Counted from the first letter of the stretch, positions 3,270-55,899 are shown. The stretch is DNA of 64,000 bases from Dehalococcoidia bacterium (GCA_965208625.1 OZ242348.1:465948-529947), one strand, 5' to 3'. Numbers and translations are program-made. Notes: a model not told the origin generated them from the letters alone.

Positions 3270-4193
3270 CTACTTGAGTCCATTATAGATCAACCATGCT
3301 TCCGACGGCCACTGCCACGCTACATTCCTATCTAAGTATTGGTGCTGGAGGCCAGTCTTGGAATTAAGCGACCTCCTCCAATGAGAGACTTGGACTGCAT
3401 TCCCTGGTATAGGAGCTTCAATAGAATCAGTCCCACTCATGCAATTCCTGAATTTGGCAGGTCTCACTTGCTGAAGCATATAGTGTTTTGATTGGTGAGT
3501 AGAAATCAACATGGCAATAGGGCTTAAAGTTTGAGTAGCACCCAACACTCGTTTGATAGCAGCCGCATTGTCGTCATAGAGTGCATGAATCGCACTTACC
3601 CAGTATTCGTATCCAGCGGCTTCTTCGCGAAAGAGGTCAGGCGGTGACGTGCTGCATTGCACTTCGACTAGGGAAAGTGCTTTATTGAGAGGAGGTATTG
3701 CACTGGATTCAACTACAAATTGTTCCCATAGTCTCACTCCTAAGTCTATCATTGGGCGGCTGGTATCGGAAGAGTGAATGTTGATTGAATCAATAGCTTG
3801 ACCGTCAATAATGGCATCGGTAACAGCCAGTGCTACCGCAAACTGCATCGCTAGAGCTCCACATCCGAAATCAATAACCCGAAGCCGCCCACTCGGCCCT
3901 AGAATCAATGAGCGATTGCCTCTAACGCTTAGTAATCTCTTTATCATGCCGTAGGCTAGATTGATTTGTTTCGGTTGATACCAAAGCACGTAGAACAACG
4001 CGACCCAGTCATTCTGGTAGTCGGGTTGCTCCCCTGATTGCAGAAGGTCCAAGGATCTGAGCGCGAGCCGAATCTTGGTCTTGCGCTCAGATAGAGTTAG
4101 ATCCTTTGATAGGCGCTGATACTCAGTTTCGCCCACCTTCTGAATTGTTCGGTCAATAGCACTGGCTATCGACCGTGTGGTTCGCGCGTCCAC
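3270..4193 (-). CDS. Class I SAM-methyltransferase-like protein of unknown specificity, in an AT-rich insert
   Basis: LRVIDFGCGALAM matches Rossmann motif I, with an acidic residue about 20 aa later (IHSSDTS). GTG start with AAGGA 6 nt upstream. Sampled lines are 37-57% G+C against about 68% in flanks. Confidence 0.55.
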   Translation of the reverse strand: MDARTTRSIASAIDRTIQKVGETEYQRLSKDLTLSERKTKIRLALRSLDLLQSGEQPDYQNDWVALFYVLWYQPKQINLAYGMIKRLLSVRGNRSLILGPSGRLRVIDFGCGALAMQFAVALAVTDAIIDGQAIDSINIHSSDTSRPMIDLGVRLWEQFVVESSAIPPLNKALSLVEVQCSTSPPDLFREEAAGYEYWVSAIHALYDDNAAAIKRVLGATQTLSPIAMLISTHQSKHYMLQQVRPAKFRNCMSGTDSIEAPIPGNAVQVSHWRRSLNSKTGLQHQYLDRNVAWQWPSEAWLIYNGLK

Positions 4194-4213
4194 GGATCGT
4201 CCTTGCTCTGAAC

Positions 4214-5494
4214 CTACCCCACGAGCACGCCGGCCTCGGAGGGGAGCTGGTCGAAGATCTTGGCGTTGGCGTACTGCGGGTGGACGGGCACCTGGTGCTG
4301 CAGCTCGATCATGTTGCCGGTCTTCCCGGACTCGATGACGGCGAGCGTCGCCTCAAGCGTCGCCATGCCCCACTCGGGCGTGTGGTAGACGGGCGCGCCG
4401 TTGACGACGGCGTCGTACAGCTCCTTGAGCTCGGCGCGGCGGTTCATCGCCCACCCTGAGGGCGGCTTCAGGTCGATGGTGTGGTGGCCGTCGTTGTCGT
4501 AGATGGTGACGCCGTAGGCGGAGCGGGTGATGTCGCCGCGCTCACAAGAGACGACGACGAAGCCGGGCTCGGCGGGCACCCACGGCTCGCCACCGGGGTC
4601 GCGGTTCTGCCCCTCGCGCTTGAAGATCTCGACCTCGCGCTCACCCCCGATGCGGATCGCCTGCTTGTCGGACTCCTCGTCGCGGGTGCCGGTGATCATG
4701 CCGTTGCGCACCTTCATGCGCTCGGTCTCGTCGTACCGCTGGCGGTCGTGTCCCCAGGGGACGAGCTGCGCGCCCATGAAGTAGCCGTGTGCGTTGTGGA
4801 TGATGGTGGAAACGGCGCCGTTCTCGAACTCGAAGAGGGCTGAGTAGTAGCCGGGGATGGGGCGCTCGGGCATCCACTGGCCGACGACGCCTCGCACGTT
4901 CTTGACCATGCCTCCGCCGAGCAGGCGCACGGTGTCGATCTGGTGCGGGCCCTGCCGGTAGACGAGGCCGCCGCCCTGCGCGAGGTCGAGTTCCTCCGCG
5001 ACGCGGGGGCGCAGCAGCCAGTCCGTGTAGGCCATGAAGTTGATGGCCTTCACCGCGCCGAGCTGGCCGGACTCGATGATGCTGTACATCTTGCGGAACG
5101 GGGGGATGAACGAGCGCGTGTGGCCGGCGATGAGCACGTTGCCCGTGCGCTTCGCGGCGTCGCACATCGCCTGCGCCTCTTCGAGGTTGAGCGCCATCGG
5201 CTTCTCGACAACGACGTGCTTGCCGTGCTCGAGCGCGTAGATGGTCATGGGGGCGTGGAACCGGTTGGGCGTCGAGATCCAGACGGCCTCGACGTCGTCG
5301 TCCTCGCAGAGTGCTTCGATGCTCTCGTAGGCCTTCGCCTCGTAGCGGGCCTGGAAGCGCTCTCTCGTGAGCGGGTTGATGTCCGCTCCGGCGATAAGGT
5401 CGATCTCCTCCATCTGCTCGAAGGCGGGAAGCATCTCCGTGCCGCCCACGCCGATGCCTGCCATCGCCACGCCAAGTGTTCGTTTGGTTGTCAT
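4214..5494 (-). CDS. Gfo/Idh/MocA family NAD(P)-dependent oxidoreductase
   Basis: N-terminal GVAMAGIGVGG Rossmann motif and EKPMA motif. Start trimmed to ATG 5494 because of AAGGAGAG 5 nt upstream. Confidence 0.8.
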   Translation of the reverse strand: MTTKRTLGVAMAGIGVGGTEMLPAFEQMEEIDLIAGADINPLTRERFQARYEAKAYESIEALCEDDDVEAVWISTPNRFHAPMTIYALEHGKHVVVEKPMALNLEEAQAMCDAAKRTGNVLIAGHTRSFIPPFRKMYSIIESGQLGAVKAINFMAYTDWLLRPRVAEELDLAQGGGLVYRQGPHQIDTVRLLGGGMVKNVRGVVGQWMPERPIPGYYSALFEFENGAVSTIIHNAHGYFMGAQLVPWGHDRQRYDETERMKVRNGMITGTRDEESDKQAIRIGGEREVEIFKREGQNRDPGGEPWVPAEPGFVVVSCERGDITRSAYGVTIYDNDGHHTIDLKPPSGWAMNRRAELKELYDAVVNGAPVYHTPEWGMATLEATLAVIESGKTGNMIELQHQVPVHPQYANAKIFDQLPSEAGVLVG

Positions 5495-5654
5495 GTTGCT
5501 CTCCTTTGCGCCATCGTAGTTCTTCCCACCCACCCGCCCGGAGCGCTTGTGGGGGACACCCCCACGTCCCCGGCACAGGGGCTTCGCCCCTCTGCACTCC
5601 CCCAGGCAGGCTATCCGGCAGTGTTATACACCTGCACGCGCAAGCGCGCCACGC

Positions 5655-6962
5655 TTACCCCTCCTGCTCTGCCAACTCCTCCTGCAGCAGGTCCTCCGCG
5701 TACCGGAGCAGCGTCTGTTCGCGGTCATCGGGCGTGGCTTTCGACTGGAAGTAGCGCCGCAGGGCGTCGAGGGGCTCAATGCGCTCGGCGTCCTCCCACG
5801 GGAGGCGCGTCCGGCGCTCGCGCTCGACACGGCGTTCGATGCCGGCGACGTAGAACGCGGAGGCGAGCGCCGCGCGCACGTCTGCCTCGCGGAACGCGGG
5901 CTCCTGCTCGGCGCGCATGTCGATGCGCAGACGGACGATGGAGCGCGCAAGTTCCTCCTCCGCGTGCGCGGCGATGGCCTGGACCGCGGCCTCGGTGGGA
6001 TTGTCCATCGGACCTGTGGCCACGCGTATCGTGAGCATGGGGCGGGCAGGGGTCGGTACGAACTCGTAGCCGATGAGGCGCTCACCCTGCGGACGGGCGG
6101 GGTCTATCTCGGCGACGACGAAGCCCTTGTCCTCGCGCTCCTCGCTGAAGTCGACGCGTTCGATGCTGCCCGCGTAGACGACCGGCGGATGCTCCGTGAG
6201 CACCTGGTGCTTGTGGATGTTGCCGAGCGCGACGTAGTCGAACTGCGGGATGGCCACGGTGCCAAGGCTGAGGACGTGGTCGTTCCCCAGCATCATCGAC
6301 TGCTCGGAGGCGGTCTTCGCTCCGGCGATGTTGACGTGCGCGCAGAGCACGGCGGGGACGGCGGGGTCGAGCTTGTCGACCTCTTCCTGGAGGTACGTGA
6401 CGAGGCCTGTTTCGACCTCCTGCTTGATCTGCTCCAGCGTCTTGCCGCGCGTCTCCTCGCGGTTCATGAACTGGCCGATGCGTATCCACGGCAGCGCGAC
6501 GACCTGCACGTCCCCAGCCTTCGTGGGGATGCGGTGCGTGCCGAGCGTCTGTCCGACGGTGACGTTGGCGACGCTGAGCGTGGGGAAGATCTCGAGCGCG
6601 GTGGCGCGGTTGGCGACGTGCGGCAGGTCGTGGTTGCCGATGGTGAGGAACGTGGGGATGCCCGCCGCGGAGAGGCGCGCGATGCGGCGCGCGAACTCGC
6701 GCTGGTGCGTCTGCGTGGGGTTGCGCGCCTTGTAGGCGTCGCCCGCGAAGAGGACGAGGTCGCAGCCGCCGTCGATGGCGTAGTCGACGGCGTAGTCCAT
6801 CGCGGCGAGGAAGTCGAGGAGGCGCGTGTTGACGCCGAGGTACTCCGTGCGGTCGACGTTCGGCGCGAACCAGTCCGGCAGCGCGTCCAGGTCGGCCTGC
6901 GAGGCAGGGCGTCCGTACGTCTCGACGCCGACGTGGATGTCGGAGATGTGGAGGAGGCGCAT
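5655..6962 (-). CDS. SbcD/Mre11-type metallophosphoesterase (DNA repair exonuclease subunit) with a C-terminal helical extension
   Basis: MRLLHISDIHVG, GDAYK, GNHD and GNIH phosphoesterase motifs in order. Start trimmed to ATG 6962. No SbcC/Rad50 partner in the window. Confidence 0.75.
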   Translation of the reverse strand: MRLLHISDIHVGVETYGRPASQADLDALPDWFAPNVDRTEYLGVNTRLLDFLAAMDYAVDYAIDGGCDLVLFAGDAYKARNPTQTHQREFARRIARLSAAGIPTFLTIGNHDLPHVANRATALEIFPTLSVANVTVGQTLGTHRIPTKAGDVQVVALPWIRIGQFMNREETRGKTLEQIKQEVETGLVTYLQEEVDKLDPAVPAVLCAHVNIAGAKTASEQSMMLGNDHVLSLGTVAIPQFDYVALGNIHKHQVLTEHPPVVYAGSIERVDFSEEREDKGFVVAEIDPARPQGERLIGYEFVPTPARPMLTIRVATGPMDNPTEAAVQAIAAHAEEELARSIVRLRIDMRAEQEPAFREADVRAALASAFYVAGIERRVERERRTRLPWEDAERIEPLDALRRYFQSKATPDDREQTLLRYAEDLLQEELAEQEG

Positions 6963-7017
6963 GGGGGTCAGGCCCTCACACTCGGCGTGTTCCGGATGCC
7001 GCACCATTCAAGAAAGT

Positions 7018-7044
7018 GGGCCATTTTGAGCCATTCTGAGCCAT
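7018..7044. promoter_or_regulatory. Three 10-bp-phased direct repeats G(G/A)GCCAT, 56-82 bp upstream of the sbcD-like start
   Basis: GGGCCAT at 7018, GAGCCAT at 7028 and GAGCCAT at 7038, read directly from the sequence. Confidence 0.3.
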
Positions 7045-7238
7045 CCACTCGGGGATATGGCGTGGGGACCCAAGGGCTCCGCCTGCCGCCTCGCTGCCAT
7101 GGTAGGTGGCCCGGCGCGGACGGCACAAGGGGCGGGTGGCACTCCCCAAACGCGCGTGTTGTCCGTAGTCGCGTGGGGTGGGTAGTGGGCGGTAGGTTGC
7201 CGTCGAGCGGACCGAACATCGCCCTGGATGCCCCAGCG

Positions 7239-7244
7239 TATAAT
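7239..7244 (+). promoter_or_regulatory. Perfect TATAAT -10 hexamer upstream of the DUF433/DUF5615 pair. The -35 is not convincing.
   Basis: gcgTATAATgaatgggagtGAGGAGtcttggttATG. Confidence 0.3.
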
Positions 7245-7256
7245 GAATGGGAGTGA

Positions 7257-7496
<240 letters not shown>

Positions 7497-7505
7497 GGTC
7501 GCTCC

Positions 7506-7859
7506 ATGCGGGTGAAGATCGACGAGAACCTCCCGGTTGAGTTCAAGCGCCTATTCGCTGAATCCGGCCACGATGCGGAAACGGTTTTCGATGAGAGCAT
7601 GGGTGGCGCAATCGATGCGGAGGTTGCGTCGGCCTGCATCTCCGAAGACCGTGTGCTGGTGACACAGGACCTTGATTTCGCCGACATCAGGGCATATCCA
7701 CCCTCGGAGTATTCCGGCATCGTCGTCTTCCGGCTGGCAAATCAGGGGCGAGACCAACTCCTCCAGGTCGGCGCCGCCCTTATCGAGACGTTGACCAGGT
7801 CATCGCCTGCGGGACAGCTCTGGATCGTGGAGGAAGCGCGGGTGCGCATCAGAGAGTAA
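7506..7859 (+). CDS. DUF5615-family PIN-like (Mut7-C-like) putative toxin
   Basis: MRVKIDENLP ... GHDAETV ... LVTQDLDF pattern. Lies 9 nt downstream of the DUF433 gene. Confidence 0.65.
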   Translation: MRVKIDENLPVEFKRLFAESGHDAETVFDESMGGAIDAEVASACISEDRVLVTQDLDFADIRAYPPSEYSGIVVFRLANQGRDQLLQVGAALIETLTRSSPAGQLWIVEEARVRIRE

Positions 7860-47275: not shown

Positions 47276-49255
47276 CTACCGCACCCCCAGCCCCTCCAAC
47301 CTCCCCTCGACCTCCTCCGCCTCCAGCGACAGCCGCTCCCACTCCTCCCAGAGCGTCCCCGCCTCCTCCTTGAGCGTGCCGTACTCCTCTCCCGCCGACG
47401 CCATGTGCGCTGGACCTTCGAACCGGTCGGGCTGCGAGAACATCGCCTCCAGTTCCGTGATGCGCGACTCTCGCTCGGACAGCGAAGCGCCGAGCTCCTC
47501 GATGCGCATCGACAGCCTGCGAGCCTCGCTCCGCAGCGACCGACGCTCGACCTCCGCGTCGTCGAGCGGCCGCCCGCGCCTCCGGCCGTAGCCCCGCCCC
47601 GGCGCTGCGCCGACCGCCCCGTTGACCGCGGGCGCGGCGACCCCGTTGCCGGCCTCGGTCTGCTTCCGGTACAGGTAGTCGTCGTAGCTGCCGAGGAACA
47701 CCGTGGGCTCGCGACCGTCGATCTCGACGATCTTGTTGGCCGTCTGCCGGATGAGCGTCCGGTCATGCGTGATGAGGCAGATCGTGCCCTTGTAGTCCTC
47801 GAGCGCGTCCGCGAGTATCTCCCGCGACGCGATGTCGAGGTGGTTCGTCGGCTCGTCCATGAGGAGCAGGTTGCTCGGCTGCAGGAGCAGCTTGGCCAGC
47901 GCCACCCGCGCCTTCTCGCCACCCGACAGCACGGATATCGGCTTGCGCACGTCGTCGCCGCTGAACAGGAAGCCGCCCAGCGTCGTCCGAAGGCGCTGCT
48001 CCGGTATGTCCGGCGCCGCGTGCCGAAGCTCGTCGAGTATCGAGTTCGCCGGGTCGAGCAGTTCGAGCACGTGCTGCGCGTAGTACGACGTCACGACGTT
48101 GTGCCCCGTCCTCCGCTCCCCGCCGTCGATCGGCAGGACGCCTGCGAGAATCTTCAGCATCGTCGTCTTCCCCGCGCCGTTCGGCCCGACCAGCGCGACG
48201 CGGTCCCCGCGCGACAGCGACAGGTTGACGCCCCGGTACACCGTTGTCTCCCCGTACGACTTGCTGACGCCGTTCAGCGATATGACGTCCGTGCCGCTGC
48301 GGGGCGGCTCCGGGAACGAGTACCGCACCTTCTTCGTCGTCCGCGGCAACTCGATGGTCTGCACCTTCTCCAGTTGCTTCAGGCGGCTCTGCACCTGGGT
48401 GGCCTTCGTCGCCTTGGACCGGAAACGCTCCACGAAGCGCATCTGCTTCTGCATCCGGCGCTCCTGCCGGGCCGCGGCCGCACGCTTGATCTCCAGCGAC
48501 TGCTCGCGCGCCACGACGTACTCGTCGTAGCTGCCCCGCATGAGGACGACCTCCTCCTCCTCGATGGCGAGCACCTTCGTCGCCACCTGGTTCAGGAAGG
48601 CTCGGTCGTGCGACGTGATGAGCACCCCGCCCGGGAACCCGGCCAGGTACTTCTCGAACCACAGGTTCGCTTCGAGGTCGAGGTGGTTGGTCGGCTCGTC
48701 CAGGAACAGCAGGGCAGGGTTCTGGAACAGCAGCCGCGCGAGGCCTGCCCGCATCACCCAGCCGCCGCTGAACTCGCTCATCGGCCGCGCGAAGTCGGTC
48801 TGCTTGAACCCGAGGCCCGACAGGATGGTCTTCGCCTCGTGCTCCCGGTCGTCCCCGCCCGCGGCGTCCAGCGCCATGTCGAGCTCGCTCAGGCGCTCCA
48901 GCAGCCCGGCCTGCCGCGCCGGGTCCGCCTCCGACGCCAGCGCCTCCCGCGTCGCCGCGATGTCGGCCACGAGCGCGATCACGTCCTCGCTGGCGTCCAG
49001 CACCTCCTGGAGGAGCGGCTTGCCGTCGAACGACGCCGGCTCCTGCCGGAGGTAGCCGACAGACACCCCACGCCGCATGGACACGTTCCCCGAGTCAGTC
49101 GGCGTATCGCCCGCCAGGATGTCCATGAGCGTCGACTTCCCGGACCCGTTCGCGCCTATCAGCGCGATGCGGTCTCCGGCGTCCACGTTGAGGGTGAGCC
49201 CACTGAACAGCGTCCTGGTCGAGTAGGCCTTACTGATGTTGAAGGCAGATAGCAT
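47276..49255 (-). CDS. ABC-F family ATPase (two ABC cassettes, no TM domain) with a C-terminal coiled-coil
   Basis: Two Walker A motifs ([18 protein letters not shown]) and two LSGG signatures. 659 aa. Confidence 0.9.
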
Positions 49256-49349
49256 GTAATTCTGGGTGGGGAGGGTATTGTAGCAGTGGGGGCGTGGGGA
49301 GCTAGAGACAAGGGCAGATGTAAGTGGATGGGGTCAATGGGCGTGTAGG

Positions 49350-52300
49350 CTAGGAGTGATCCAGCCAGTTCGCTTCGCGGTCGTGTATCTTGCCTTCAAC
49401 TTGATAGTTGTCAGTAATCTCTCGGAGCAGTTTGGCCGTGAAGGGCCATTGCGCTCTGATTCTTGCCGAGTCAGCTCGGTATCCATCGGCAAGCGTACGT
49501 TCCTGCTTGCCGCCATCGAATAAACTCCGAGAGGTCACGCCACGTTGGTTTCGTTTTCCAACGACGAAGCCAACACCTACGTGATGAGAACCAATCTCTT
49601 CAAGCAGGTCCCTCATAGGCTCGCAAGGCCAAATCCCATCCGAACCTACTGGTGCATTGGATAGGACTTGACCTATCTGCTGATCCCCAATGACTTCTCT
49701 ATCTCTGTCTTTGCAGAGACGGCGTGCTTCTCTGACCCAGGATTCTAGGGTCTCATAGTGAACGGCATTATCTTCCAATAGGCCAGGAACCTCACGTAGG
49801 TTCCGTAGGATTGCATAGGCACGGTCCCCACGAACCTGACGGGTCTGATCGTCAACAACTTCCTCGTCCTGTCCGTCGAATCGTTTGAAAACCCAAGCAA
49901 TTAGGTCGGCAAAGAGAGCGGGAGATTTCATTACTTGACGGCTGAGTGCTAATTGGGGGCGATAGTCTTCCAGAATGTCCATGTACGGAATCTCTAGTCT
50001 GGCGATAGTCTCTTCAGAAACCTCAGGCTCGTTGTCAAGGCTTTCTAAGAGATGACCAATCCAAAAGCCATCGGACAGGAGTTCAGGGAATTCTGGAGTA
50101 TCGATATCGAAAGGTATCTGTTCAAGTGTTCGTATTATGACACTTGATGGAACCGATGCATAGGAAATTAAGTGGAGCGCAGCCCTTGAACGTCGCACAT
50201 CAAGGAATTGCTGAACTGCGATGCAGATGCTCTCGGTGTCCAGATTTGCCACACGGAATGGATTCACCTGTTTCCAATAAGCTTCAACCACGTCGGGTTC
50301 TTCATTCTGGATCCGTTGCCAAGTGTCGAGGGTTACTGGTGCTGCCAGATAAACATCCGATATAGCCTCGATGCTGGGCGTACTATTCTTGAAGGTTACG
50401 AGTGCTCTGTCCAGAGCGACCCAGCCGGTTTTATCGAAGAGGCCTTGAAGCATTCCGTGTGCAAAAGACCTCAACAGTGGGTCGTTAGACACCAGTATCT
50501 CCGTGGCTGAAGCAAGGGCTGCCTCACTATCGATAACCTGAGATGCTATTCTGCCTACTAGATATGGGTTGGGAGCGGCTACTGCGAGACGAAGAACCTC
50601 AGGGATGCCTCCCTGTGCATATATTGCTGCGAAGGTCAATTGTTGCTGTTTCGCGAGGTGCTCACGGTCGGCATCGAAATCTACGGGTTCATTCTGGGGG
50701 TCTATCGGCAATGGGTCTGGTACCGCAGCCAATCCGCTGGAAAACCAGTCAACGAAAAGCCATGCGTGAGCGACACCGAGGTCCGATGGCATTAGCGCTT
50801 CGTATATGGTTTCGATTGCTTTGAGATCCTCCTGCCTCATTGCCCATGATGCTTTCGGGTACCTGCGGTGATGGTGCAGCACTGCTCGTGCTTTTGCCCA
50901 TAAGGCATCTCGGTTAGGGCTTTGTTTCAGAGTATCAACCTGCTCTTGAAGTAGCATCAGTGCTTCCAACCTGAAATCAGGTGCCAACCGAGAGAGGATG
51001 CCCAAAACATCGCTCCACCTATTGGCGTCGGCTCGAACGTTCTCTAGCAGTAGGCGATTCATCTCTCCGATGTAGGCGGCACACTCTCGGTGAGTGACTC
51101 CGGCAACACCGTCCTGGGCCCAAGGCTGCCACGAAGGAGGCGTGCGCTGCAATATGAAATATGTTTCACGGTATAGCATGACTAACAGCTGCCATCCAGT
51201 GTTCGGAAATGTTCTCAATAGCATGGCAAGTGTCAGCAACCGTTCGTTATCCGGTGCTTCTGACATTCTGATTGACGGTATGAATAGTTCACACAAACTG
51301 TTGATAGGCCGATTGGATACCCTGCCACCGGGGTCAAGTTCGGCAAGGTGGGCCAGTATCTTGACGACTCTTCCGAAATAGTCCTCTGACCACGCTAAAC
51401 ACTCCAATGCCCATAGAATCCCCGTGTGAGGGATAGAGCTGAAAACTCCTTCTCCTTCTTGTTCAAAGAGCACTTTGAACGAACTGTCGGATGAGTTGAC
51501 GTTCGTTTCAATGACGTCCAAGAAAACCTCAGGAGCTGCCTCGGCAAGCACAGCCAGGTTCTTCCCAAGCGTCGCCCATTTGTGCCATTCGCTGTCTGAT
51601 CCCAATACACGCCTTATGACATGGGCAGGTAGATTGCCAGCTTCTTCAGCATGTATCGCACGTTCCGGCTGTGTTCCCATTATCGCTAGGCCTCTCGTGA
51701 TACCTTCGCGCAGCGTGTTGCTATGTGGAAGCACTTTGCCAAGAATACTTGCCAAGTAGCGTTCACCGATAGGCATGTCAAATTCAGGTGATAATTCTCC
51801 CAGTACTTTCAGAGCAGCTCGCTCAAACCTCTGCAGGATAGTAGGGGTCAGTCTTGATGCAAGGAGATGCCAGGCCTCTTCTTGAGAGATGAATCGCCAT
51901 CGGCTGCCAATCTTCTGCAGAGGGGAATCCGGAACCAATGCCAAGGCTGTTATTGTAGACTCAATCTCTGCAAATGTTCTTCCTGCGACTTCTACAACAA
52001 TCTCTCTATCACCCTCGTTATTCGTGTCCCATTGCCCTACCAGCATTAAGGCAACTAGGGCCTCATCAGCATTGGATACCCATTCCGGCTGCGGTCCACC
52101 GGCCTCGTCGATGAGAAACCGGCGCATGATGGATAGCCGCCTTGCGCTTTTCCTGACGAGCGAACGAGCACGGGTTTCAGAGAGGCCCATAGCGATCAGT
52201 GCATTGGGAGCCTCATCGCGTCCCAACGTGTCGAGCATGCTACCGTTGCCGTGCGGTTCTTCATGTTCGCCCAATGGTATGAGAACGTGGTGGCCGTTCT

Positions 52301-53141
52301 GGACTGTGGCCTGAGAAGCCACATCCTCCTTAAAGTGGCGAATCAGCACCAAGGGCATATGGTGGTGTTCGAGGCGTTGCCAAGCATCAACGGTCCGAAC
52401 GACGATAGCCTTTGAGAGTAACGAGGCTCCCCATGGAGCATCAGCGCTTAGCGCACACGAGGCAACAAACGCAATCGCTTCCTCTCTGGTATTCGCCAGT
52501 ACATAATGGCGACCCGGTATTCCCTGAGCCCATGCACATATTCCTTCAGCTTGGCTATGGCGGCCTGCAAGCACCAATCCAGTGGAGATGGGCGGATTTG
52601 TCATGCGTGACCAGTGTTCCCACCACTCATCAAGTGCTGTCCAACCCTCATCGGGCAGCTTACCTATGAGTCGAGCGAACCAGTGTGCAACCCCTGGAGC
52701 CTCGCCGATCCAAGCGACTAGGTCATCAGCGTCCCAAGCCCTTACTTCAGCCCATTCTCCTAGCGCTCTATGCCTGCTAACCCAAGCATCCTTTTGCTTC
52801 CACCTGCGTGGCGTTACGAATATGAATGTAGTTTGTGCGGGGTCCTGACCCATTGGGGATGTCGTTCGCTTTCGATAATCAGAGTTTGCTTTTCGAGGGA
52901 TATCTTTCTGACGGCTCATCTCCCAGGCCGAAGCCCCATCAGGAACCCATGAGTTCCCTAGGCTAACGTCCAGCACCCCATCCCAGTCTCCTAGATGTAC
53001 TGAACTGCCGCTGGGCATGTCTATGATTGACGGCGAAGGACAGGTAGCCAAAATCAACCGTCGCACAAGCTCAGGCAGTTGATCCGCAGCGTTAGGCAGT
53101 TCGGCCCAGGCCACGAAGTCGGAGGGGTCAAAAGTAATCAT
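49350..53141 (-). CDS. Orphan giant protein (~1,263 aa) of unknown function in an AT-rich island. It has a ~170-aa N-terminal globular domain plus a ~1,100-aa helical-repeat-like region.
   Basis: Uninterrupted ORF. G+C of sampled lines is 40-55% versus ~68% in flanks. Start placed at ATG 53141 (MITFDPSDF), with an alternative at ATG 53189 (AAGGGG upstream). The upstream 240-256 codons of the track ORF are low-complexity, cross the intergenic repeats and run antisense into cinA. Confidence 0.7.
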   Translation of the reverse strand: MITFDPSDFVAWAELPNAADQLPELVRRLILATCPSPSIIDMPSGSSVHLGDWDGVLDVSLGNSWVPDGASAWEMSRQKDIPRKANSDYRKRTTSPMGQDPAQTTFIFVTPRRWKQKDAWVSRHRALGEWAEVRAWDADDLVAWIGEAPGVAHWFARLIGKLPDEGWTALDEWWEHWSRMTNPPISTGLVLAGRHSQAEGICAWAQGIPGRHYVLANTREEAIAFVASCALSADAPWGASLLSKAIVVRTVDAWQRLEHHHMPLVLIRHFKEDVASQATVQNGHHVLIPLGEHEEPHGNGSMLDTLGRDEAPNALIAMGLSETRARSLVRKSARRLSIMRRFLIDEAGGPQPEWVSNADEALVALMLVGQWDTNNEGDREIVVEVAGRTFAEIESTITALALVPDSPLQKIGSRWRFISQEEAWHLLASRLTPTILQRFERAALKVLGELSPEFDMPIGERYLASILGKVLPHSNTLREGITRGLAIMGTQPERAIHAEEAGNLPAHVIRRVLGSDSEWHKWATLGKNLAVLAEAAPEVFLDVIETNVNSSDSSFKVLFEQEGEGVFSSIPHTGILWALECLAWSEDYFGRVVKILAHLAELDPGGRVSNRPINSLCELFIPSIRMSEAPDNERLLTLAMLLRTFPNTGWQLLVMLYRETYFILQRTPPSWQPWAQDGVAGVTHRECAAYIGEMNRLLLENVRADANRWSDVLGILSRLAPDFRLEALMLLQEQVDTLKQSPNRDALWAKARAVLHHHRRYPKASWAMRQEDLKAIETIYEALMPSDLGVAHAWLFVDWFSSGLAAVPDPLPIDPQNEPVDFDADREHLAKQQQLTFAAIYAQGGIPEVLRLAVAAPNPYLVGRIASQVIDSEAALASATEILVSNDPLLRSFAHGMLQGLFDKTGWVALDRALVTFKNSTPSIEAISDVYLAAPVTLDTWQRIQNEEPDVVEAYWKQVNPFRVANLDTESICIAVQQFLDVRRSRAALHLISYASVPSSVIIRTLEQIPFDIDTPEFPELLSDGFWIGHLLESLDNEPEVSEETIARLEIPYMDILEDYRPQLALSRQVMKSPALFADLIAWVFKRFDGQDEEVVDDQTRQVRGDRAYAILRNLREVPGLLEDNAVHYETLESWVREARRLCKDRDREVIGDQQIGQVLSNAPVGSDGIWPCEPMRDLLEEIGSHHVGVGFVVGKRNQRGVTSRSLFDGGKQERTLADGYRADSARIRAQWPFTAKLLREITDNYQVEGKIHDREANWLDHS

Positions 53142-53280
53142 CTCCACATATTGTACCGCAGCAGGCCCACGCTCCTCCCCTTGTGACATCCGCCCCTTAC
53201 GCCCACACCCCCCGACCGCGTACGCTGGTTGCCTGACCGCCGTACCGGGCATCCCGGGGGCGCGAGGACCAGGAGGCGGG

Positions 53281-53415
53281 TGAGCAGAAATGAGCAGGAA
53301 TGAGCAGGAAAAGACTGGAAATGAGCAGCGAATGAGCAGTAATGGGCAGTTGGACTGCTCACGCGGAAGACCGGATTCAGAGGTGGATCGAGGCCCGGTG
53401 AGCAGAAATGAGCAG
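53281..53415. promoter_or_regulatory. Array of helically phased TGAGCAG heptamers (7 exact direct, 1 variant, 1 inverted) in the divergent region between the giant ORF and cinA
   Basis: TGAGCAG at 53281, 53291, 53301, 53322, 53333, 53399 and 53409. TGGGCAG at 53343. Inverted CTGCTCA at 53355. Spacings are 10, 10, 21, 11, 10 and 10 bp. Confidence 0.5.
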
Positions 53416-53577
53416 AATTTCCCTGTGAACCCTTCCCTCCGGCGTAGCGCGGCAGCCTCCACCCGCCGTGGCTGGACAGGCTCACCGCGTACAACGGCCC
53501 CCGTCCTGCCCATCCTGTCCATCGATGTCGATTCCCCGCTATACTCGCGCGTGCCGTGATTCCGGGGTAGGGAAGAC

Positions 53578-54810
53578 ATGAACACTGAGATCATCGCCGT
53601 CGGCACCGAGCTCCTCATGGGCGAGACCCAGGACACCAACTCGTCCTGGCTCGGCCAGCGCCTGCCGGAGTTCGGGCTCGAACTCAAGTTCGTCACCATC
53701 GTCGGCGACGACCTCACGCGCCTCACCGAAACGCTCGACCGCGCGTGGCGCAGGTCGGACGTCGTCATCGCCATGGGCGGCCTCGGCCCCACGCTCGACG
53801 ACATGACGCGCGACGGCATCGCCAACATGCTCGGCGAGCAGATCACCACGGACCCGGAGCTCAAGGTGTGGCTGGAGGAGAACTTCTCCCGCCGCAACAT
53901 CAACCCCATGCCCCAGCAGAACTACCGCCAGGCCGGCATCATCCCGTCCGCCGCCGCCATCCGCAACGCCATGGGCACCGCGCCCAGCTGGTGGATAGAC
54001 AAGGGCGGCAAGCTCCTCATCACGCTCCCCGGCCCCCCGCGCGAACTCACCAACATGTGGACCACCGAGATCGCCCCGCGCCTCAAGGAACGCCTCCCCG
54101 GCCAGAAGATCATGGCCCGCACCTTCAAGACCATCGGACTCAGCGAGGCCGCCGTCGACGAGATGGTGCGCGACGTCTACGACGTCCCCGGCATGGACTT
54201 CGGCGTCTACGCGAAGCAGGACGGCATCTACCTCCGCGGCATCGCGAAAGCCGACACCGAGGCCGAAGCCCTCACGACCCTCCTCCGCGCCGAGACGATG
54301 GTGCGCGACGCCCTGGGCGACTACATCTGGGGCACCGACGAGGAGTACCCACCGGAGCGCGTCGGCGACCTGCTGCGCGAGAAGGGCTACACGCTCGCGG
54401 TGCTGGAGTCCTGCACCGGCGGCATGATCGGCGCCGCGCTCACGGAGATCCCCGGCTCGTCCGAGTACTTCGTCGGCGGCGCCATCACCTACTCGGACGA
54501 CATGAAAGCGCAGGCCGGCGTCCCCCGCGAGACGCTCGACGCCCACGGCGCGGTCAGCGAGGAGACCGCCCGCGCCATGGCCGACGCCGCCCGCGCCACC
54601 TACGCCGCCGACTGCGGCGTCAGCGTCACCGGCGTCGCCGGCCCCGGCGACCAGGGCGGCGTCAAGGCTGGCACCGTCTACATCGGCGTCTCCACCCCGT
54701 CCACCTCGACCGTCACCCGCCACGAGTTCCCCTCCCGCCGCCCCCTCGTCCGCAACCGCGCCGTCACCGCCGCCCTCCTCCAACTAATCCGCGCCTTGCA
54801 GTCGGAATAG
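53578..54810 (+). CDS. cinA: CinA: MoCF-binding domain fused to a nicotinamide-nucleotide amidohydrolase (PncC) domain
   Basis: MNTEIIAVGTELLMGETQDTNS ... GGLGPTLDDMTR, plus ESCTGGMIGAALTEIPGSSEYF in the C-terminal domain. Confidence 0.9.
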   Translation: MNTEIIAVGTELLMGETQDTNSSWLGQRLPEFGLELKFVTIVGDDLTRLTETLDRAWRRSDVVIAMGGLGPTLDDMTRDGIANMLGEQITTDPELKVWLEENFSRRNINPMPQQNYRQAGIIPSAAAIRNAMGTAPSWWIDKGGKLLITLPGPPRELTNMWTTEIAPRLKERLPGQKIMARTFKTIGLSEAAVDEMVRDVYDVPGMDFGVYAKQDGIYLRGIAKADTEAEALTTLLRAETMVRDALGDYIWGTDEEYPPERVGDLLREKGYTLAVLESCTGGMIGAALTEIPGSSEYFVGGAITYSDDMKAQAGVPRETLDAHGAVSEETARAMADAARATYAADCGVSVTGVAGPGDQGGVKAGTVYIGVSTPSTSTVTRHEFPSRRPLVRNRAVTAALLQLIRALQSE

Positions 54811-55065: not shown

Positions 55066-55166
55066 CCGGAGCGTACCAGTGACACCGGCGCATTGCCGAA
55101 GTGCCACCCCCGCGCTAACCTCTGAACCAGAGGTGAAGAACGCTGCAGCGCAGCGGAGGTAACAGA

Positions 55167-55472
55167 ATGGCCAGCGCAGCGAAGAAGACTGCAAGACCCA
55201 GGAAACCCCTGCCCCGCACGCCTGTGCGCCCGAAGGTCGCAACGAAACACGTTACGCCGAGTGAGGCTGCAAGGTGGCTGGCAGACGAATTCAGGAAGCA
55301 GCGGAATGGCGAGGGAGAACAGGTGGCAAACGAGGAGAAGAAGAGCCGCAGGCTGAAGAAACCTCTGCCCCGCACGCCTGTGCGTCCGAAGGTGATAACA
55401 AAGTACATGACTCCAGACGAGGCTGCTCAGTGGCTGTTAGACGACTTCAGGAAGCAGCGGAATGGCGGCTGA
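55167..55472 (+). CDS. Putative VapB-like antitoxin made of two tandem copies of a ~36-aa basic unit
   Basis: KPLPRTPVRPKV(A/I)TK(H/Y)(V/M)TP(S/D)EAA(R/Q)WL(A/L)D(E/D)FRKQRNG occurs twice (DNA 55203..55311 and 55359..55467, 156-bp period). GGAGG Shine-Dalgarno. Stop overlaps or abuts the PIN gene. Confidence 0.55.
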   Translation: MASAAKKTARPRKPLPRTPVRPKVATKHVTPSEAARWLADEFRKQRNGEGEQVANEEKKSRRLKKPLPRTPVRPKVITKYMTPDEAAQWLLDDFRKQRNGG

Positions 55473-55485
55473 TGGAGGCCCCGTG

Positions 55486-55887
55486 ATGGCGGACTCCAAT
55501 GTGTGGTTCGACTGGTACAACGGAAAAACTACGCAGGGGACTTTGCTCTTGGAGCAATTGCTCGCCGCACGGAGGATATGGGTACATTCCGACGTCATCA
55601 GGGAGTTCGCGCTGGGCAGGAAGACGACGCGGCTGACGGACTACATCGTGGCCATGCGGCAACTGCCCCGCGTTGACGACCTTTCCATCAACGAGTTCCT
55701 TGCCGTCGTGGACGAGTTCAACCTGCGCGGAAGCGGCAAGTCCCGCGACACGTTCCTGTTCGCCGCCGCTATCCAGCATGACGTGCTGATTCTCACGTCC
55801 GACCGGGCATTCCAACGGAAGTGTGAACGCGTAAGCCTCTGCTATTTCTGCCAGGAGGGCATCCCGCACGAAGCAGCGCTTCAGTAG
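55486..55887 (+). CDS. PIN-domain (VapC-like) ribonuclease toxin
   Basis: MADSNVWFDW (first Asp), ... EFALG ..., DTFLFAAAIQHDVLILTSDRAF. ATG 55486 has GGAGG 7 nt upstream; the alternative ATG 55462 overlaps the antitoxin stop. Confidence 0.7.
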   Translation: MADSNVWFDWYNGKTTQGTLLLEQLLAARRIWVHSDVIREFALGRKTTRLTDYIVAMRQLPRVDDLSINEFLAVVDEFNLRGSGKSRDTFLFAAAIQHDVLILTSDRAFQRKCERVSLCYFCQEGIPHEAALQ

Positions 55888-55899
55888 GCCGCAGACCCC

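Follow-up and report, generated by a model that had tools for sequence, protein, structure and literature searches.

The window analysed here, 64,000 nucleotides of Dehalococcoidia bacterium DNA (GCA_965208625.1 OZ242348.1:465948-529947), contains one very large minus-strand gene situated between the genes for an ABC-F ATPase and CinA (Table 1). The gene encodes a protein of 1263 amino acids with the predicted layout of an Avs- or NLR-like immune receptor, that is, a putative N-terminal effector, a nucleotide-binding module of STAND type that has lost its nucleotide-binding motifs, and a long helical sensor. It belongs to a large family and probably serves in defence.

A compositional island with a single gene

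Over 49.2-53.2 kb, the G+C content of the window drops to 0.48-0.57, compared with 0.67-0.75 on both sides. The gene itself has 52.4% G+C versus 67.6% in 12 kb of flanks, and its third-position G+C (GC3) is 0.507, whereas ABC-F and cinA reach 0.938 and 0.964, respectively. The dip in G+C together with the one uninterrupted frame shows that the compositional island and its single large open reading frame are real. An earlier reading of the window, made without database searches (termed here the sequence-only reading), had described just such an island with one minus-strand frame between ABC-F and cinA, and the Pfam assignments of the two neighbouring genes agree with it.

The open reading frame found mechanically from 49350 extends to 53909; the part above 53141 overlaps cinA or host intergenic DNA. 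Homologues all begin with M-I-x-F-D, which matches the first methionine (M1) at ATG 53141, and an alternative ATG at 53189 lies inside the host flank common to strains with other cargo (see below). ATG 53141 is therefore the start, which settles a choice between these two codons that had been proposed as a check. The public annotation, P0001, gives a product of 1,390 amino acids by placing the start 127 codons ahead of the conserved M1; the extension reads through host intergenic DNA and a repeat array and is an annotation artefact.

A large family without a name

The protein had been called an orphan that could be placed in no family. This proved incorrect. At least 374 clusters at 90% identity match the full protein at E<=1e-3 in a word-indexed search; among the top 120 matches listed, almost all are 1,249-1,266 amino acids long and 44-59% identical over the full length. 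With residues 1-350 as a query, phmmer found 3,307 proteins at E<=1e-3, 1,405 of them at E<=1e-30, among 1.84 billion representatives at 50% identity. Nearly all full-length phmmer matches are ~1,250-1,270 amino acids long or carry in addition an N-terminal extension of 95-210 residues. PHROG 18693 (phrog_18693), a family listed as being of unknown function, matches the full length, residues 9-1258 against profile positions 9-1250 of 1258 (E 4.4e-148). On the other side, the whole protein matches no Pfam or NCBIfam model, no Pfam repeat model matches its helical C-terminal part, and sequence searches of PDB, Pfam and NCBIfam with the whole protein and with family profiles gave nothing usable. 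The family has no Pfam or NCBIfam model, is not called by PADLOC 2.0 and is misnamed in RefSeq, and has therefore been missed by those resources.

With one genome taken per GTDB species, 181 stretches encode a relative. A clade of 45-52% identity is found mainly in Dehalococcoidia/Chloroflexota, with single Acidimicrobiales and Caldilineaceae genomes. A second clade, of 25-31% identity, spans Alpha-, Beta- and Gammaproteobacteria, Acidobacteriota, Planctomycetota, Bacteroidota and Bacillota. Family members are also present in 24 plasmid records, 11 of which are conjugative. One copy in a Dehalococcoidia contig (L017, 10001-10525) has five stop codons within its first 175 codons and is a decaying pseudogene.

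Predicted architecture and loss of the nucleotide switch

AlphaFold2 (AF2) models were made of two overlapping parts, residues 1-700 and 561-1263, from a 114-sequence alignment. The predicted local distance difference test (pLDDT) score is 90 for the first part, with a predicted template modelling (pTM) score of 0.87, and 89 for the second. In a Foldseek comparison of residues 1-700 with the PDB, Avs4 bound to a phage portal (8dgf) came first (E 3e-5, probability 1.0); further matches are NLRC4, Apaf-1, CED-4 and subunits of the RFC clamp loader. The TM-scores to Avs4 and NLR-type receptors are low, 0.14-0.22, over multi-domain alignments.

Three units can be read in the model behind the N-terminal domain: a five-stranded nucleotide-binding-type domain (NBD, residues ~176-305), a helical domain (HD, ~306-350) and a winged-helix domain (WHD, ~351-420). 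The elements of the last two are helices over 310-346, followed by H360-368, E370-372, H376-386, H390-401, E408-411 and E414-417 (H, helix; E, strand). Residues ~176-420 are, on this model, the predicted NBD-HD-WHD core of STAND proteins.

The nucleotide-binding motifs of this core are gone. At the Walker A site, strand 211-215 passes via the residues NTR directly into helix 219-232. An alignment of 71 homologues, drawn from both clades, shows (A/G)D(S/T)xxEAxAF at the P-loop position of every one, and both the glycine-rich loop and the lysine are missing. Strand 265-268, that of Walker B, has the form LVL(I/V)RxF (LVLIRHF in the window) and no acidic residue; R268 is invariant in the clade of 45-59% identity. 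Loss of the motifs from all aligned homologues shows that the family carries an ancient, uniformly inactive STAND module, and with Walker A and B both lost, this STAND-derived module cannot work as a nucleotide switch. Neither GxxxxGK[ST] nor GK[ST] occurs anywhere in the 1263 residues, and no stretch reaches transmembrane strength (maximum Kyte-Doolittle mean over 19 residues, 1.24).

The remaining ~840 residues form a HEAT/ARM-like solenoid in the all-helical AF2 model, with Foldseek matches to Kap121p, transportin-3, importin-beta and SF3B1 (E ~1e-3, probability ~1.0). Towards its C-terminal end is a block in which P1119, W1135, D1168, G1169, W1171, P1172, C1173, R1177 and G1201 are invariant across clades of only 25-31% identity.

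The sequence-only reading had noted the lack of a Walker A motif and of transmembrane segments and had supposed helical repeats of HEAT/ARM type, all of which the motif scan, the hydropathy profile and the models confirm. Its description of the protein as being without an NTPase holds for the nucleotide motifs but not for the fold, as a module derived from a STAND-type NTPase is present at residues ~176-420. The architecture, which it did not recognise, is by fold matches the tripartite layout of Avs proteins with a dead NTPase module.

The N-terminal domain and its replacements

In the AF2 model the N-terminal domain has the order alpha-beta-beta-beta-alpha-beta (H18-33, E37-41, E55-59, E69-75, H81-94, E105-109). 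Residues D54, G55, W73, E74, K84, D88 and T110 are invariant across both clades at an overall identity of ~25-30%. D54 is at the start of strand 2 (55-59), E74 is in strand 3 (69-75) and K84 is on the helix that follows. As modelled, the domain is most likely built like a PD-(D/E)xK nuclease whose lysine has shifted its position. Fold matches in BFVD are domain-sized but weak; they include endodeoxyribonuclease I and, over 170 columns, a 'Restriction endonuclease' (probability 1.0, E 0.023). Among 48 family members there is no match to Mrr_cat or another nuclease model of Pfam at E<=10.

The N-terminal end of the protein is exchanged or extended in several relatives. In the proteobacterial clade, there is an extra N-terminal helix-turn-helix (HTH) domain of ~95 residues that resembles XRE and C proteins (Pfam HTH_3, E 7.6e-9; PADLOC Control_protein, E 5.8e-13). 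This fusion explains the RefSeq names 'helix-turn-helix transcriptional regulator' and 'HigA family addiction module antitoxin'. Two plasmid variants retain only residues ~353-1263, i.e., the WHD and the solenoid, and other effectors join at residue ~353. In Shewanella baltica OS117 the N-terminus is swapped for a domain of ~260 residues, which also heads a 1,809-amino-acid NACHT protein in Polaromonas and TPR proteins in Burkholderia. In Buttiauxella, a gene for a 106-amino-acid Het-E N-terminal domain (Pfam E 1.5e-40) is found directly before a 922-amino-acid version that starts at the WHD; the pair could be a split or frameshifted HetE-N fusion. The Buttiauxella locus (L086 4588-7682) is on plasmid pBTX_57 and has a group II intron reverse transcriptase just upstream. 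The combination of a constant sensor chassis with swappable N-terminal modules of the death-effector type is recurrent in NLR-like immune proteins.

Likeness to known systems

The most conserved stretch of the family resembles Avs8. Residues 529-638 match positions 558-659 of 1283 in the PADLOC profile PD-Lambda-4_A (E 3.6e-4, 16 bits), and the same colinear segment is matched in 26 of 37 diverse members, with a best E of 1.8e-7. A second PD-Lambda-4_A model matches six of the 37 (best E 3.8e-8); no other PADLOC family matches more than one of them. PD-lambda-4A, now named Avs8A, combines an Mrr nuclease with a P-loop STAND NTPase and a sensor made of repeats; after binding major capsid proteins of the HK97 fold it degrades DNA, for which ATP and Mg2+ are needed (bioRxiv 10.1101/2025.07.02.662641). 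According to a 2026 preprint, the Walker motifs of the Klebsiella protein KpAvs8 are degenerate, 'suggesting a lack of ATPase activity', yet this protein senses the major capsid protein (bioRxiv 10.64898/2026.01.04.697583).

Avs8 (Escherichia coli ECOR07, WP_000963924.1) and the protein of the window are both single large proteins, of 1283 and 1263 amino acids, found in defence islands. They have in common the order of an N-terminal domain of PD-(D/E)xK type (putative in the present protein), a STAND module and a C-terminal repeat sensor. Degenerate Walker motifs are a further common trait where one tested homologue, KpAvs8, is concerned. The differences are that sequence similarity extends over only ~9% of the length and a full-length profile match is not reached, that Walker A and B are wholly gone here whereas EcAvs8A requires ATP and Mg2+ for its DNase activity, that the N-terminal domain is not recognisable as Mrr, and that none of 78 loci has a partner gene like Avs8B. 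Given the partial profile match and the missing P-loop, the family is a distant relative of Avs8 that has its architecture and stands outside Avs8.

At the level of fold, the arrangement of effector, NBD-HD-WHD and repeat sensor is also that of Avs4 (SeAvs4, 8dgf), NLRC4, Apaf-1 and CED-4, from which the present protein differs by its missing nucleotide-binding motifs and by having no sequence similarity to them. Computational studies have also reported inactive STAND modules, in BREX as well as in MoxR-vWA ternary systems (PMC7159879, PMC8195603, PMC12839542). The modules concerned, iSTAND, iSTAND2, BrxB/BrxF and the C-terminus of PglW, likewise combine a fold of STAND/ORC-Cdc6 type with Walker A and B motifs that have eroded, and are presumed to serve in sensing or assembly in conflict systems. 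They are, however, parts of multi-gene systems, whereas the present gene stands alone and encodes a putative effector of its own together with a very long solenoid; MoxR, vWA and BREX genes are absent from six homologue neighbourhoods annotated with Pfam.

DSR2 may offer a working analogy of another kind. Its effector is a SIR2 NADase, its HEAT-like sensor recognises a structural protein of phages, and it has no nucleotide switch. The common elements are thus an N-terminal enzymatic effector and a long helical-repeat sensor without an NTPase, and the analogy agrees with the absence of the NBD relic from the Shewanella variant. DSR2 differs in the fold of its effector and has no sequence relation to the family, and it is not among the top 50 fold matches of the C-terminal half.

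An exchangeable cargo site between ABC-F and cinA

Sister strains were found by searching metagenome contigs with the CinA of the window, and the DNA was compared by blastn. In these strains (L090, L091 and L121 among them) the flanks are 93-97% identical to the window at the DNA level. Alignments show that the identity ends at 49292/49299 and returns at 53179/53182. The common breakpoints, 49299 and 53182, place the island at 49300-53181; the sequence-only reading had put it at 49256-53200, so that the island itself stands and its limits do not.

The sister strains have other genes at this position. L090 and L091 carry a 3,878-bp insert with an unrelated TPR protein of 1,260-1,295 amino acids on the opposite strand, to which the large protein shows no similarity by tblastn. 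L121 has a 1,924-bp insert that encodes, at L121 350-2151, HEC-01A (PADLOC E 1e-164) and HEC-01B (E 1e-62), a candidate defence system. A further sister strain, L110, has at 504-2757, as read by eye, HEC-01A, a VapC-like PIN gene and a ribbon-helix-helix-like frame. The TPR protein (L090 2116-6003; L091 ~3726-7602) has TPR repeats at residues ~220-620 by sequence matches to the PDB and a C-terminal region that looks PIN-like by eye. PADLOC gives no match for it, and distant relatives annotated as 'hypothetical protein' are found on conjugative plasmids. It may be another uncharacterised defence candidate.

No direct or inverted repeat scoring above chance, no tRNA and no integrase was found at or near the ends of the island. 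As att-like repeats, tRNA and integrase were all missing, insertion of the island by an integrase was discarded as an explanation and recombination in the flanks preferred. Swapping of cargo by recombination in the conserved flanks would be the simplest route. Among the relatives recovered via CinA, no empty site was found, only alternative cargos, because relatives with a CinA identity of <=74% have lost the ABC-F/cinA synteny. The large gene is thus probably a horizontally acquired cargo of an ABC-F/cinA defence hotspot, which it probably entered by recombination in the conserved flanks. With junctions conserved at base-pair level and at least three alternative cargos, the site is a clean natural defence hotspot.

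These data bear on the reading of the protein as a housekeeping helical scaffold, or a MalT-like STAND transcription regulator, of odd composition. STAND proteins do include transcription regulators, some relatives are annotated as helix-turn-helix regulators, and the window copy is flanked by housekeeping genes. The gene is nevertheless missing from sister strains that have nearly identical flanks and other cargo at the site, its GC3 is 51% versus 94-96% in the neighbours, its spread over phyla is patchy and without synteny, and pseudogenised copies such as that of L017 exist. The structure, moreover, matches Avs4 and NLR/Apaf-1-type receptors and not a known housekeeping scaffold. This explanation is very improbable and is largely excluded by the present evidence.

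Genomic company of homologues

Six independent homologue neighbourhoods were annotated with Pfam, a scan for partner genes covered 78 loci, and G+C content was compared over 83 fetched loci. The first neighbourhood contains HsdR-like and N6_Mtase/specificity genes (type I-like restriction-modification, RM) in an element with a serine recombinase, a relaxase and HigBA. The second has KilA-N/BstA_C and a DDE transposase, and the third GajA/GajB-like (Gabija) genes with SNF2/NOV_C. The fourth is a solo insertion beside a methylase fragment, the fifth has Mrr_cat_2-ResIII, HNH and a CBASS operon, and the sixth an AAA_15/21 ATPase and DUF222. The Shewanella variant adjoins Abi and SieB genes. In 45 of the 83 loci the family gene is more than 3 points poorer in G+C than its flanks and in two it is richer. 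The surroundings differ at every locus examined; together with the G+C skew, this is not the pattern of syntenic core genes with host-like composition. The RM, BstA, Gabija, CBASS and Abi/SieB neighbours and the 24 plasmid records associate the family with defence and mobile contexts.

No conserved partner gene was found in the 78 loci. The sole recurrent 'neighbour' in the scan, an apparent conserved antisense frame upstream, was rejected, since it arises as an artefact of the N-terminal HTH fused in the proteobacterial clade. In three proteobacterial loci (L053, L055 and L060), open reading frames that resemble the anti-restriction protein ArdA (motif KIYVACLAAYNNG..., by eye) are present a few kb from the family gene; judged from their sequences, they suggest carriage by integrative and conjugative elements (ICEs) or other conjugative elements.

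Mobile carriage raises the question of an addiction or competition module, one that would sense a protein of an incoming plasmid or ICE, or the loss of its own element, and kill or arrest the cell, with the XRE/HigA-like HTH providing autoregulation in the proteobacterial clade. The 24 plasmid records, 11 of them conjugative, accord with this, as do the name 'HigA family addiction module antitoxin', the likeness of the HTH to PADLOC Control_protein, the nearby ArdA, transposase, relaxase and serine recombinase genes, and the scarcity of the family in phage genomes. Yet the window copy and the whole Chloroflexota-dominated clade of 45-59% identity are chromosomal and have no HTH, well-known anti-phage systems (Gabija, CBASS, BstA and RM) lie beside homologues, and Avs8, the sole relative detectable by sequence, senses a phage capsid protein. 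An addiction role is therefore considered unlikely.

A proposed receptor without a nucleotide switch

The explanation that best accounts for these observations, and that is considered probable though by no means secure, is that the gene is a horizontally acquired, single-gene receptor of Avs/NLR type, with a probable nuclease head, a dead STAND module and a solenoid distantly related to the Avs8 sensor, which would be activated without nucleotide. The sequence-only reading had taken the gene for a conflict or defence gene gained by horizontal transfer, its product having a small effector-like head on a large helical sensor. Cargo swapping in sister strains, G+C content, neighbours and fold all support it, with defence as the probable activity.

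In the mechanism envisaged, the solenoid would wrap around a conserved protein of a phage or mobile element; speculatively, in view of the link to Avs8, the ligand might be capsid-like. The signal would pass via the WHD and the relic STAND module, either by conformational change or by an oligomerisation that joins N-terminal domains. These domains would then become an active nuclease, cut DNA and stop the infection. Unlike EcAvs8 and Avs4, the protein would require no ATP.

Several observations weigh against this picture. The motif of the N-terminal domain reads E74-x-S/G and not ExK, with the conserved lysine 10 residues further on; by fold, restriction enzymes are matched weakly (E 0.02-0.5), and the domain has no sequence match to nuclease families in Pfam or PDB. 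A comparison of the family profile with a NACHT protein by hhalign gave no signal, the likeness to STAND being structural only. Similarity to Avs8 is limited to ~110 residues at E 1e-4 to 1e-8, and PADLOC would not call the protein Avs8. The Shewanella variant does without the NBD relic, which may therefore not be an oligomerisation device, and the HTH of the proteobacterial clade makes a regulatory or DNA-anchored role possible. Viral carriage is scarce (one phage record and two IMG/VR contigs), and the surroundings are purely those of housekeeping genes at one homologue locus (L005) and in the window itself.

Some of these points would suit a non-enzymatic sensor or adaptor whose N-terminal domain binds DNA or protein. 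The whole would serve as a scaffold or as a receptor for nucleic acids and pass a signal on to further factors, a role that Kaur et al. (2021) proposed for iSTAND modules. The non-canonical ExK and the failure of sequence searches to detect a nuclease family fit such a role. So do the prediction of inactive STAND domains as nucleic-acid receptors (PMC8195603) and the strongly conserved, unexplained loops at the C-terminal end. With no conserved partner gene among the loci scanned, however, a downstream effector would need to be host-encoded and universal. Invariant acidic and basic residues are found on a scaffold resembling that of restriction enzymes, and variants of the family place modules of the death-effector type (HetE-N and the domain that also heads a NACHT protein) at the N-terminal position. 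An adaptor without enzymatic activity thus has a low probability.

A bolder form of the receptor hypothesis can be put forward tentatively and with somewhat more doubt than confidence. The protein would represent a large, widespread and unnamed family (at least 3,300 clusters at 50% identity) without any nucleotide switch, in which capture of a ligand by the solenoid directly licenses a new variant of PD-(D/E)xK nuclease. The chassis of residues ~353-1263 would be a portable sensor that is also paired with death effectors of HetE-N and bNACHT type.

Receptors of the STAND/NLR type are thought to depend on a switch driven by nucleoside triphosphates for controlled oligomerisation. Thousands of members that have the receptor layout and no P-loop would allow nucleotide-free pattern recognition and effector licensing to be tested. 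Such a mode of action has so far only been hinted at, by one Avs8 homologue, KpAvs8, and by the computationally predicted iSTAND modules. The switch-less Avs-like family is large and currently unannotated, but it is anticipated by the KpAvs8 and iSTAND literature.

Other features of the locus

Table 1. Features of the window at and around the large gene (positions are counted from the first nucleotide of the window)
Feature	Position	Strand	Evidence
ABC-F ATPase, left host flank	47276..49255	-	Pfam ABC_tran (two domains) and ABC_tran_Xtn; 98% identical in L090 and L091
Variable cargo segment, 3,882 bp, between ABC-F and cinA	49300..53181		blastn against sister-strain contigs; G+C 52% vs 68%
Coding sequence, 1263 amino acids, Avs-like protein without P-loop	49350..53141	-	Stop codon 49350-49352; intact open reading frame; PHROG match; conserved start
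C-terminal conserved block, residues 1119-1263, with loops GxDGxWPCEPVR and NxRGVTxRG...GGxQER	49353..49787	-	Invariance across clades
HEAT/ARM-like alpha-solenoid, residues ~421-1263, presumed ligand sensor	49353..51881	-	All-helical AF2 model; Foldseek
Avs8-like conserved segment, residues ~515-645	51207..51599	-	Partial match to PADLOC PD-Lambda-4_A; most conserved stretch of family
Helical domain and winged-helix domain, residues ~306-420	51882..52226	-	AF2 secondary structure
Inactive relic of a STAND-type nucleotide-binding domain, residues ~176-305	52227..52616	-	Foldseek; strands E211-215, E245-248, E265-268, E285-290, E300-302
Lost Walker A position, residues 211-232: HYVLA-NTR-EEAIAFVASCALSA	52446..52511	-	Homologue alignment
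N-terminal alpha/beta domain, residues 1-165, putative PD-(D/E)xK-like nuclease effector	52647..53141	-	AF2, conservation, BFVD fold matches
Host-side flank up to cinA, with (A)ATGAGCAG array and spurious ATG 53189	53182..53577		Conserved in L090, L091 and L121 despite different cargo
cinA, right host flank	53578..54810	+	Pfam MoCF_biosynth, CinA_KH and CinA; 97% identical in L090 and L091

Beyond ABC-F and cinA, Pfam identifies a gene of the arginase family and one for an AdoMet decarboxylase. The host-side intergenic flank that separates cinA from the hotspot junction contains, at 53277-53425, an array of 7-10 copies of (A)ATGAGCAG with a spacing of 10-11 bp, i.e., one per helical turn. Five copies are present in the close relatives L090, L091 and L121 and none in L110 or in relatives with a CinA identity of <=74%; the array was not found upstream of any homologue of the large gene. 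It could be a binding site for a regulator or be linked to recombination at the hotspot. A 118-amino-acid open reading frame at 53138-53494 was considered as an upstream HTH gene and rejected; its frame runs through the array.

A second, small variable islet is found at 55121-55897, with a G+C content of 0.585-0.62. It contains an open reading frame of 101 amino acids (55167-55472) and one with a PIN domain (55462-55887; Pfam PIN, E 5.7e-5), and the two look like a toxin-antitoxin pair of the VapBC type. The islet is precisely missing from the sister contig L090, and ~1.06 kb of other DNA takes its place in L094 and L118.

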